In this document: one piece after another, positions 6,075-7,434 of the stretch
Numbering within the stretch: the first letter of the stretch is position 1
How the letters are laid out: each line of letters starts with the position of its first letter
From: Escherichia phage vB_EcoM_112
Sequence record: NC_024125.2
Reading direction: 5' to 3' (one strand)
DNA length: 64,000 nucleotides
The notes under the pieces: generated by a model
Database searches by the model: none
The model's input: only the letters and a program-made list of their open reading frames with translations
What the model was told of the DNA's origin: nothing
Position numbers and translations under genes: made by a program

Positions 6075-6151
6075 TGGTCGAGGCAGAAGGATTCTAACCT
6101 TCAACCTACGGATTAGAAGTCCGTTGCTCTATACAATTGAGCTATGCCCCG
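6075..6151 (-). tRNA. tRNA-Arg (anticodon UCU)
   Basis: Hand-folded cloverleaf: acceptor CGGGGCA/TGCCTCG, anticodon loop CTTCTAA, T-arm GAAGG-TTAGAAT-CCTTC, encoded CCA. Confidence 0.8.
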
Positions 6152-6155
6152 TAAT

Positions 6156-6821
6156 TTAAAATTTCATTTTTCGACCTTTAAACCATCCTTCTGGAATTGG
6201 GTCAGTTTTCTTAATACGTTTAGAAACTTTTTCATCTAATGAATGAATCCACATCATACCGAATTGGGAATTCTTTTCACCTTTCTGGTGATTATTTTTG
6301 GCGTGAGATTCTTTCATTTTATTAATAGTTTCAGGAGTATGGGTCTTACCCAAGAAAGATTTAGTATTTAAAAATTTCTCTCTATACTTAGGATTATCCC
6401 AAAGCTGTTTAAACCTTTCTGAACCCATTTTACGATATTTTTCTTTAAGGTCTGGGTCGTTCTCAAATCTGGTTTTAAAAGCGGCAGCTCCTTTTAAGGA
6501 AGCTTCTTTCTTTTTATCCAAATATTCTTTAGTGTTTAAATGGTCCCAACCACCTTCACCACCTAATTTCAAATTATAAACATCAGGGCGCTTTAAAAAC
6601 TCTTCAGTCACAATATTCTTTTCTAACTCAAACATAGAGGTTTTATCGTCAAAGAACTCTAATATTTCTTTAGAAAAATTTTCTATACCATACTTATCTT
6701 GGGCTCTTTTTAATAATTTACCAGAACCCATATATCCATCATCTAAATTTTCGGTAGAATGAGCGCCTATATAGATTTTATTATTAATTTTATTTGTTAT
6801 TTTATAAATGTAATGGAACAT
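6156..6821 (-). CDS. segB: GIY-YIG homing endonuclease
   Basis: 221 aa; N-terminal GIY-YIG motif (HYIYKITNKINNKIYIGAH); lies inside the tRNA cluster as T4 segB does. Confidence 0.85.
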   Translation of the reverse strand: MFHYIYKITNKINNKIYIGAHSTENLDDGYMGSGKLLKRAQDKYGIENFSKEILEFFDDKTSMFELEKNIVTEEFLKRPDVYNLKLGGEGGWDHLNTKEYLDKKKEASLKGAAAFKTRFENDPDLKEKYRKMGSERFKQLWDNPKYREKFLNTKSFLGKTHTPETINKMKESHAKNNHQKGEKNSQFGMMWIHSLDEKVSKRIKKTDPIPEGWFKGRKMKF

Positions 6822-6862
6822 AAATATCTCCTATTTCTAAGAGTATTTATGTTCCCAAAATA

Positions 6863-6934
6863 TGGCCCTGGGTGGAATTGAACCACCATCTGGCGATTAT
6901 GAGTCGCTTGCTTGAACCTTCCAGCTACAGGGCC
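6863..6934 (-). tRNA. tRNA-Ile (anticodon CAU)
   Basis: Acceptor GGCCCTG/CAGGGCC, anticodon loop CTCATAA, T-arm GGTGG-TTCAATT-CCACC; no encoded CCA. Confidence 0.7.
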
Positions 6935-6940
6935 TTGATA

Positions 6941-7013
6941 TGCTGATTGGCGGAATCGAACCGCCGACGTCCTCATTACAAGTGAGGTGCTCTACCTACT
7001 GAGCTAAATCAGC
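6941..7013 (-). tRNA. tRNA-Thr (anticodon UGU)
   Basis: Acceptor GCTGATT/AATCAGC, D-arm GCTC..GAGC, anticodon loop CTTGTAA, T-arm GGCGG-TTCGATT-CCGCC. Confidence 0.8.
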
Positions 7014-7020
7014 GAAATTA

Positions 7021-7107
7021 CGGAGGCGATAGGATTCGAACCTATGAGTCGCCGGAGCGACTGCCGGTTTTCAAGACCGGTGCATTAAACCACTCTGCCA
7101 CGCCTCC
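7021..7107 (-). tRNA. tRNA-Ser (anticodon UGA), class II
   Basis: Acceptor GGAGGCG/CGCCTCC, anticodon loop CTTGAAA, long variable arm, T-arm TAGG-TTCGAAT-CCTA. Confidence 0.8.
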
Positions 7108-7109
7108 AG

Positions 7110-7183
7110 TCTCCGCGGCAGGATTTGAACCTGCGACATTCTGCTCCCAAAGCAGACGCTCTACCAAACTGAGCTACACGAAG
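7110..7183 (-). tRNA. tRNA-Pro (anticodon UGG)
   Basis: Acceptor CTTCGTG/CGCGGAG with G-U pairs, anticodon loop TTTGGGA, T-arm GCAGG-TTCAAAT-CCTGC; only 2 nt from tRNA-Ser (Pro-Ser dimer). Confidence 0.75.
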
Positions 7184-7196
7184 TAAATTAAATTTG

Positions 7197-7267
7197 AGCG
7201 GATAATGAGAATCGAACTCACATCATCAGATTGGAAGTCTGAGGTAATGCCATTATACGATATCCGC
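7197..7267 (-). tRNA. tRNA-Gly (anticodon UCC)
   Basis: Acceptor GCGGATA/TATCCGC, anticodon loop CTTCCAA, T-arm GTGAG-TTCGATT-CTCAT; 3' end encoded as TCA rather than full CCA. Confidence 0.75.
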
Positions 7268-7273
7268 AAACTT

Positions 7274-7360
7274 TGGTACGAGAAGTGGGACTCGAACCCA
7301 CAAGGAAATCATTCCGCAGCATTTTAAGTGCTGTGCCTTTACCAATTTGACCATTCTCGC
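7274..7360 (-). tRNA. tRNA-Leu (anticodon UAA), class II
   Basis: Acceptor GCGAGAA/TTCTCGT, anticodon loop CTTAAAA, long variable arm, T-arm GTGGG-TTCGAGT-CCCAC, encoded CCA. Confidence 0.8.
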
Positions 7361-7361
7361 G

Positions 7362-7434
7362 CTGGGAATAAAGGACTCGAACCTTTGCATCTAGCAGTCA
7401 AAGTGCTATGCCTTACCAACTTGGCTAATTCCCA
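7362..7434 (-). tRNA. tRNA-Gln (anticodon UUG)
   Basis: Acceptor TGGGAAT/ATTCCCA, anticodon loop CTTTGAC, T-arm AAAGG-TTCGAGT-CCTTT; 1 nt from tRNA-Leu (Gln-Leu dimer). Confidence 0.8.

Follow-up and report, generated by a model that had tools for sequence, protein, structure and literature searches.

The transfer RNA (tRNA) cluster of phage T4 (NC_000866, 70.9-72.5 kb) has a middle promoter just upstream of it, from which a ~1.75 kb transcript carries eight tRNAs, segB and both small RNAs (PMC2330249, citing Broida and Abelson); transcription ends past the species I RNA gene (PMC2330249). T4 SegB cleaves tRNA genes in their 3′ part, at GGTTCRANTCC...CCAR, has its preferred site in the tRNA-Asn of segB-less phages, and homes with an efficiency of about 100% (PMC2330249). 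In the segB-less phages RB3, Sf23 and T2L (the last as described in PMC2330249), the cluster has ten tRNAs, with tRNA-Tyr(GUA) and tRNA-Asn(GUU) in the place of segB. The tRNA-rich region of T6 has segB beside tRNA-Arg, keeps tRNA-Tyr next to segB and lacks Pro and Ser, and amplification of its Tyr-segB unit escapes Septu (Chihara et al. 2026, PMC13096335). A link between SegB, tRNAs and defence was published in 2026 (PMC13096335). Here we analysed a 64,000-nucleotide (nt) stretch of Escherichia phage vB_EcoM_112 (NC_024125.2; "the window"), in which minus-strand tRNA genes and a segB gene occupy positions 6075-7434. We read this region as the tRNA operon of a T4-like phage of the genus Tequatrovirus, in which the tRNA set fits codon supply and segB stands in the place of tRNA-Tyr and tRNA-Asn (probability about 0.88). 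After decades of work on the T4 cluster, its CCA-less dimeric precursors and SegB, the cluster itself adds little: it is real but ordinary, textbook material that was already known.

ARAGORN made nine tRNA calls over the whole window, eight of which tile 6075-7434 on the minus strand. The same eight were recovered with Rfam RF00005 at 57-75 bits (gathering score 29 bits; E = 1e-9 to 1e-14 for the 64-kb window), far beyond chance, and they were the only hits of any Rfam family above threshold in the 64 kb. Both programs agreed on the ends and anticodons of all eight. Strand, order, boundaries and anticodons had been proposed earlier from hand-folding (the original prediction) and were recovered by the software; the sole difference was the label Met that ARAGORN gives by default to a CAU tRNA. 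The genes, in transcription order, are as follows.

7362-7434 (ARAGORN 7361-7434), minus strand: tRNA-Gln (UUG), without encoded CCA; Rfam 66 bits; 73/73 identical to T4
7274-7360, minus strand: tRNA-Leu (UAA), class II, CCA encoded; 83/84 identical to T4
7197-7267 (ARAGORN 7196-7267), minus strand: tRNA-Gly (UCC), the CCA of T4 reading CAA here; 70/71 identical to T4
7110-7183 (ARAGORN 7109-7183), minus strand: tRNA-Pro (UGG), without CCA, PP01-type allele; 61/74 identical to T4 and 73/74 to PP01
7021-7107 (ARAGORN 7020-7108), minus strand: tRNA-Ser (UGA), class II, without CCA, followed by TAA as in T4; 86/87 identical to T4
6941-7013, minus strand: tRNA-Thr (UGU), with TATCAA replacing the CCA-A of T4; 71/73 identical to T4
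6863-6934, minus strand: tRNA-Ile2-type (CAU), without CCA, the T2/RB3/RB32 allele and not that of T4; 50/74 identical to T4 and 72/72 to PP01
6156-6821, minus strand: segB, a free-standing GIY-YIG homing endonuclease gene of 221 amino acids, Pfam above cut-off
6075-6151, minus strand: tRNA-Arg (UCU), CCA encoded; 71 bits; begins 4 nt past the segB stop codon

Measured from the discriminator bases (Rfam ends), 1 nt (C7361) separates Gln from Leu and 2 nt (CT, 7109-7108) separate Pro from Ser, the spacing originally given for both pairs; the remaining spacers are 6, 13, 7 and 6 nt. CCA is encoded for Leu and Arg alone, so that the "several" genes said to lack it number six of eight (Gln, Gly, Pro, Ser, Thr and Ile). 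Plus-strand open reading frames (ORFs) of 40-59 amino acids within the cluster overlap the tRNA genes and were treated as spurious.

The gene order, Gln-Leu-Gly-Pro-Ser-Thr-Ile-segB-Arg-rnaD-rnaC on one strand, is that of T4 (NC_000866). The window also shares with T4 the anticodons, the Gln-Leu and Pro-Ser junctions, the leader, the segB hairpin and the terminator, as well as the flanks, with trna.2 to trna.4 upstream and the e.8 side downstream. The "T4 arrangement" first noted thus holds for order and layout, but not for the genes themselves: Pro (83%), Ile (65%) and Arg (about 71% in a forced alignment) are other alleles, and the CCA encoded for Gly and Thr in T4 is lost. The centre of SegB has also diverged from T4, which in addition lacks a 557-bp insert found past the terminator in the window. 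The 2-kb region matched 935 phage records, led by Shigella phage ESh30 (97.8%) and Escherichia phage PP01 (97.7%), both Tequatrovirus; among the matches listed, none was identical to the window across the 2 kb. PP01, ESh30, fPS-2 and RB32 have the same layout of eight tRNAs and segB at 97-98% identity, and the segB-less clusters share the first seven tRNAs, tRNA-Arg, rnaD and rnaC with the window.

The assignment of the CAU tRNA to Ile stands, on sequence similarity. Its closest genes are annotated tRNA-Ile in 5,423 of 5,426 Escherichia coli genomes, and it matches an E. coli tRNA-Ile gene at 59/72 positions compared to 48/72 for elongator tRNA-Met. The 17-nt anticodon arm is identical (17/17) to that of one E. 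coli tRNA-Ile(CAU) gene. The acceptor stem GGCCCTG/CAGGGCC, followed by A73, contains the C4-G69 and C5-G68 pairs, which are TilS determinants. Elongator or initiator Met was rejected in favour of Ile2, given the closer E. coli tRNA-Ile genes. C34 is predicted to be modified to lysidine. The RB3 gene matches at 72/75 positions and additionally encodes CCA.

We also observed Ile(CAU) genes elsewhere in coliphages and their hosts. On the E. coli chromosome NZ_AP022105.1 (positions 151-373 of our extract L012), the tRNA-Ile(CAU) with the identical arm adjoins two tRNA-Arg genes, and Stx2-converting phages carry similar Ile(CAU) genes at 79.5% identity. These clusters resemble the window in having an Ile(CAU) with the identical 17-nt arm beside Arg tRNAs; unlike the window, they belong to temperate phages or prophages, have other tRNA bodies (about 80%) and lack segB. 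Rare-codon tRNAs for AUA and AGA/AGG therefore recur across unrelated coliphages.

Codon supply and the place of segB

We compared codon usage in 72 non-overlapping ORFs, called by length in the window, with that of 65 annotated E. coli K-12 genes (one 50-kb sample). The eight most phage-enriched codons were AGA, GGA, ATA, TCA, AAT, TTA, TAT and ACA. Six of the eight codons cognate to the tRNAs fell within this top eight (hypergeometric P = 1.3e-5), and the other two of the top eight, AAT and TAT, correspond to the Asn and Tyr tRNAs found at the segB position in relatives. When the 14 sense codons ending in A were ranked, the eight cognate ones came above the rest (Mann-Whitney P = 0.002). The eight codons were used 175 times per 1000 in plus-strand ORFs compared to 142 in minus-strand ORFs; of the plus-strand ORFs, the five largest that we checked encode baseplate, sheath and terminase proteins. 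The classical codon-supply explanation thus predicts the set well. Because the cognate codons are phage-enriched and AAT and TAT match the displaced Asn and Tyr, codon supply explains the set. All eight tRNAs would read A-ending codons (CAA, UUA, GGA, CCA, UCA, ACA, AUA and AGA), which this AT-rich phage appears to use at two to six times the E. coli rate, most heavily in late structural genes, and the tRNAs would therefore supplement a host pool in which precisely these codons are poorly served.

The homing endonuclease proposed earlier within the cluster was found as a 221-amino-acid GIY-YIG ORF between the CAU tRNA and tRNA-Arg. It scored 28.7 bits against Pfam GIY-YIG PF01541 (cut-off 22.6) and is identical at 187/221 positions to T4 SegB (85%), at 217/221 to PP01 SegB and at 82% to T6 SegB. 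The motif K15-I-Y17-I-G19 is present, with Y17 and G19 kept; a Y17A/G19A mutant of T6 SegB is dead, so these residues are essential (PMC13096335). NUMOD3 (PF07460) reached 15.4 bits on residues 158-185, under its cut-off of 20.4, in a region 100% identical to T4 SegB. A sequence search of the PDB with SegB gave no match. Site-specific cleavage and homing have been shown for the T4 and T6 orthologues (PMC2330249, PMC13096335) and would be predicted for this protein.

The position of segB matches the preferred site of its product. In RB3 and Sf23, which lack segB, tRNA-Tyr and tRNA-Asn lie between Ile and Arg exactly at the segB place, so that the empty allele bears the tRNA-Asn with the preferred site; the T6 layout is Tyr-segB-Arg. 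In the window, segB sits exactly from the discriminator base of tRNA-Ile to the first base of tRNA-Arg. In the segB-plus phages examined, TAT or a similar triplet comes after the discriminator of the tRNA before segB, as a direct reading showed for the Ile gene of the window, T4, PP01 and RB32; in segB-less phages, CCA comes after the same tRNA. The segB cassette is thus inserted at the SegB cut position. Within the window, the 11-nt SegB core motif is present in six tRNA genes and in rnaC, and not in Gly or Arg. None of the window's genes closely resembles the preferred 27-mer (best, Ser at 21/27). Outside the tRNA and rnaC region, the sole GGTTCRANTCC match is at 32818 on the minus strand, in ORF 31890-33722 (large terminase subunit).

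We propose that segB acts as a selfish homing endonuclease targeting the T-arm and 3′ ends of tRNA genes, and that its presence in the Tyr/Asn position would account for eight tRNAs here rather than ten. On this reading, the eight tRNAs here are what is left of a codon-matched set of ten after segB displaced two of its genes.

Several points weigh against this reading. CAA is enriched only 1.2-1.6 times and CCA about 2 times, and the codon test used length-called ORFs and one 50-kb E. coli sample, not tRNA abundances. In the older T4 literature, tRNA deletions are viable on laboratory hosts with a modest loss of burst, so any benefit is conditional. The promoter, single transcript, dimeric precursors, CCA addition and lysidine discussed below are inferred from T4. 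Codon supply and defence replacement are also not mutually exclusive.

Selfish drive and defence as rival explanations

The best-surviving alternative is that the composition of the set is mainly an accident of selfish DNA: SegB homing would have dragged a tRNA block through the population and deleted other genes, so that eight tRNAs rather than ten reflect segB drive instead of selection for translation. In T4 × T2L crosses, segB was present in 99.6% of progeny and the T2L tRNA markers were lost (PMC2330249). The exact location of segB at the place of Tyr and Asn fits this view, and because AAT and TAT are among the most phage-enriched codons, the loss of those tRNAs looks costly. SegB at ≥80% identity was found in about 181 phage records, compared to 743-937 with the neighbouring RNA genes. 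However, segB drive accounts for the two missing tRNAs and not for the close match of the retained and the ancestral sets to phage-enriched codons. All eight also score as intact tRNAs, with compensatory changes between alleles, which argues for continued purifying selection. We therefore hold this explanation of the set as a whole to be tentative, and somewhat less probable than an even chance would make it.

Defence replacement is an unlikely main cause. It holds that the phage retains the eight tRNAs chiefly because they resist anticodon-arm nucleases and can stand in for the host tRNAs that these destroy, and the original prediction had accordingly called the anticodon set a readout of the defences this lineage meets. 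Septu cuts tRNA-Tyr, and T6 escapes it by amplifying its own tRNA-Tyr (PMC13096335); for Thr-UGU, a defence link is known with P2 OLD (PMC12445682). The anticodon stem of host thrU (ACUGA/UCAGU) contains a paired CUG/CAG, whereas that of the window's tRNA-Thr (CCUCA/UGAGG) has no CNG and so lacks the P2 OLD cleavage motif. Likewise, the tRNA-Gln allele of the window and T4 has no CNG, while the other Gln allele and host glnU carry it. The CNG that would mark a rescue tRNA by its absence is thus missing from phage Thr(UGU) and this Gln allele; Gly and host glyT both keep it.

Against this, codon usage is enough to predict the set, and with it the two tRNAs missing here. Gly, Pro, Arg, Ser and Leu (5/8) keep a paired CNG in the anticodon stem, which led us to reject the idea that the phage tRNAs as a whole avoid the OLD motif. 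Anticodon loops are the same across all Pro, Ile and Arg alleles; those of the Gln alleles differ at positions 32 and 38. The cluster contains no equivalent of Lys-UUU or Tyr-GUA, the E. coli tRNAs best documented as nuclease targets, and T4, with the same tRNA set, cannot escape Septu (PMC13096335). As stated, the readout of defences is not supported, since codon usage accounts for the set; a weaker form keeps partial, literature-based support from Thr-UGU and P2 OLD and from the absence of tRNA-Tyr in relation to Septu. Septu and retron-Eco7 both target tRNA-Tyr, which this phage lacks and so could not amplify as T6 does. On the basis of the literature, we would predict that it is sensitive to such tRNA-Tyr-cleaving systems.

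Transcription and maturation

Besides the tRNA genes and segB, the following elements were found.

7504-7528, minus strand: middle-promoter-like site read from the sequence, with a MotA-box-like TGCTTTA (7528-7522), a 12-nt spacer and TATTAT (7509-7504)
6815-6855, minus strand: predicted hairpin over the segB Shine-Dalgarno sequence and AUG
5954-6073, minus strand: rnaD (species 2 RNA) homologue, mapped from the T4 annotation via alignment
5810-5947, minus strand: rnaC (species 1 RNA) homologue, a structured RNA, mapped from the T4 annotation via base-by-base alignment
5736-5759, minus strand: strong intrinsic terminator, with a 10-bp stem of which 7 pairs are G-C, then TTTTT

The promoter-like site lies just past the trna.2 stop codon, upstream of tRNA-Gln, and is identical to T4; the leader upstream of tRNA-Gln is almost base-for-base that of T4. 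We take TGCTTTA to resemble the MotA-box consensus. A sigma-70 promoter scan of 5500-9200 gave 13 sites compared to 12.0 expected and was uninformative. The fold of 6812-6858 had a free energy of -21.4 kcal/mol (z = -7.2; 0/200 shuffles as stable), and the same hairpin, occluding the segB start, has been predicted for T4 (PMC2330249). Taken together, the promoter-like site, eight tRNAs, segB, rnaD, rnaC and the terminator delimit a putative unit at about 5736-7528, larger than the span first reported.

Dimeric tRNA precursors are known for T4. The Gln-C-Leu and Pro-CU-Ser (UAA tail) junctions are base-for-base identical to T4, so T4-style dimeric precursors are expected here, by homology only. 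By homology to T4, one transcript would run from the middle promoter upstream of tRNA-Gln to the terminator past rnaC, carrying seven tightly packed tRNAs, the segB mRNA, tRNA-Arg, rnaD and rnaC. Host RNase P and 3′ exonucleases would cut out the tRNAs, and the host CCA-adding enzyme would complete the six that lack CCA. TilS would turn C34 of the CAU tRNA into lysidine, so that it reads AUA.

Allele mosaic, rnaC and the downstream insert

The mosaic of alleles and the structure of rnaC are the only points beyond routine annotation. We compared the window and T4 with PP01, RB3, T6, RB32, RB69, Sf23 and two IMG/VR contigs, and observed discrete alleles in varying combinations: two for Gln, two for Pro, two for Ile and three for Arg. 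All of the alleles in the window recur often among collected phages at ≥95% identity (Gln, 133 records; Pro, 199; Arg, 184; Ile, 582). PP01 has the same Pro, Ile and Arg alleles as the window, and its Gly and Thr likewise lack CCA, but its tRNA-Gln is the other allele (89%); RB32 shares Gln, Ile and Arg, but has the T4-type Pro and CCA-encoding Gly and Thr. Differences between alleles are mostly compensatory stem changes, as in tRNA-Pro, where the acceptor, anticodon and T stems differ from T4 in this way. The T4 arrangement in this window is thus a scaffold on which discrete tRNA alleles reassort. An IMG/VR scan with an exact 44-nt tRNA-Ser pattern returned 3 contigs only, a number that would not support population statistics.

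Between the two tRNA-Gln alleles there are 8 differences, all in the 17-nt anticodon arm, and the rest of the gene is identical (window 7362-7434 compared to 3263-3335 of locus L001). The differences are three compensatory base-pair swaps and positions 32 and 38, and by our own arithmetic their clustering in the arm has a chance probability of ~2e-6. The allele of the window and T4 is the minority one (133 records compared to 343).

T4 encodes CCA for Leu, Gly, Thr and Arg. In the window, the Gly CCA has become CAA (7194-7196) and the Thr CCA has become TATCAA (6935-6940), as also in PP01 and one IMG/VR contig. These losses remove the CCAR element after which SegB prefers to cut. The Gly/Thr loss was seen in 3/6 segB-plus and 0/3 segB-less loci that could be scored, a small and phylogenetically non-independent sample from which we make no claim.

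The tRNA-Arg body could not be aligned with that of T4, and the anticodon loop CUUCUAA is common to both. In the window's gene (6078-6151), the T loop is UUAGAAU, with A at position 56, and the D loop is AAUUGUAUA, with a single G; this suggests that the elbow pair G19-C56 is replaced by U19-A56. The same change in the DNA breaks the SegB core motif (GGTTA for GGTTC) in the gene that abuts segB.

SegB itself comes in two types, which differ mainly in the central third (residues ~95-160). Compared to T4, the centre has diverged, while the GIY-YIG part at the N terminus and the last 60 residues are identical or nearly so. Among the records, 52 are ≥95% identical to the window's protein and 129 fall in the 80-90% band that holds the T4 protein. 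Both types adjoin the same tRNA-Ile and tRNA-Arg alleles (window and RB32), which indicates that segB and its flanks have recombined.

The Gln anticodon-arm patch, which takes away the CNG motif, the loss of CCAR at Gly, Thr and Ile, and the change of Arg C56 to A could be adaptive, through SegB self-immunity or escape from anticodon-stem nucleases. A broader proposal is that the cluster is a recombination hotspot maintained by SegB, in which nicks at the T-arm and CCA end of every tRNA gene are repaired from co-infecting relatives, shuffling gene-sized cassettes with adaptive outcomes, and that, separately, rnaC is a functional tRNA mimic. We regard this combined proposal as speculative and rather improbable.

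For rnaC, we aligned sequences from nine phages of four genera, including Kanagawavirus, Karamvirus and Tegunavirus. Their consensus fold comprises 46 pairs, with 98.1% of cells paired and compensatory double changes at 20 pairs, and 0/500 shuffles matched it. Nucleotides 2-8 at the 5′ end pair with 130-136, adjoining a canonical T arm, CCGGG-UUCGAAU-CCCGG. The RNA thus has a tRNA-like acceptor/T top half, with two long covarying hairpins in place of the D and anticodon arms. rnaC was found in 743 phage records, with identity of ≥95% in 679; most of the records listed leave it without annotation, and two label it tRNA-Lys. This conserved RNA deserves an Rfam family, which it still lacks.

The ninth ARAGORN call, a tRNA-Lys(ttt) at 5809-5902, falls inside rnaC. 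That it is a ninth tRNA, Lys(UUU), substituting for the host tRNA-Lys attacked by PrrC and PARIS, can be dismissed with near certainty, even though two database records label the same 138-nt variant tRNA-Lys: the Rfam tRNA model stayed below threshold (best, tRNA-Sec at 16.8 bits, E = 1.4), ARAGORN made no such call in ten related loci where rnaC is one A longer (including T4, PP01, RB3, T6 and RB32), and in the nine-phage alignment its acceptor helix shows no compensatory change and has one pair broken in 4/4 divergent sequences, compared to the 20 covarying pairs of the alternative rnaC fold. We rejected the call on this lack of Rfam support, its dependence on a 1-nt length variant and the covariation in favour of the other fold.

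The neighbouring rnaD, which starts 1 nt past the tRNA-Arg CCA, is not as well conserved as rnaC: its identity in 10 phages is 79-97%, its middle is variable and its fold z is -2.8. A T4-like phage evolved on a semi-permissive host is reported to have acquired a convergent single-nucleotide polymorphism in rnaD (2025, PMC12685909). Downstream of rnaC, a 36-nt repeat that is the terminator hairpin occurs in two copies (5170-5205 and 5727-5762) flanking the 557-bp insert. The insert contains a minus-strand ORF at 5210-5683 (157 amino acids, phrog_2280) that is not in T4; RB32 annotates the same arrangement.

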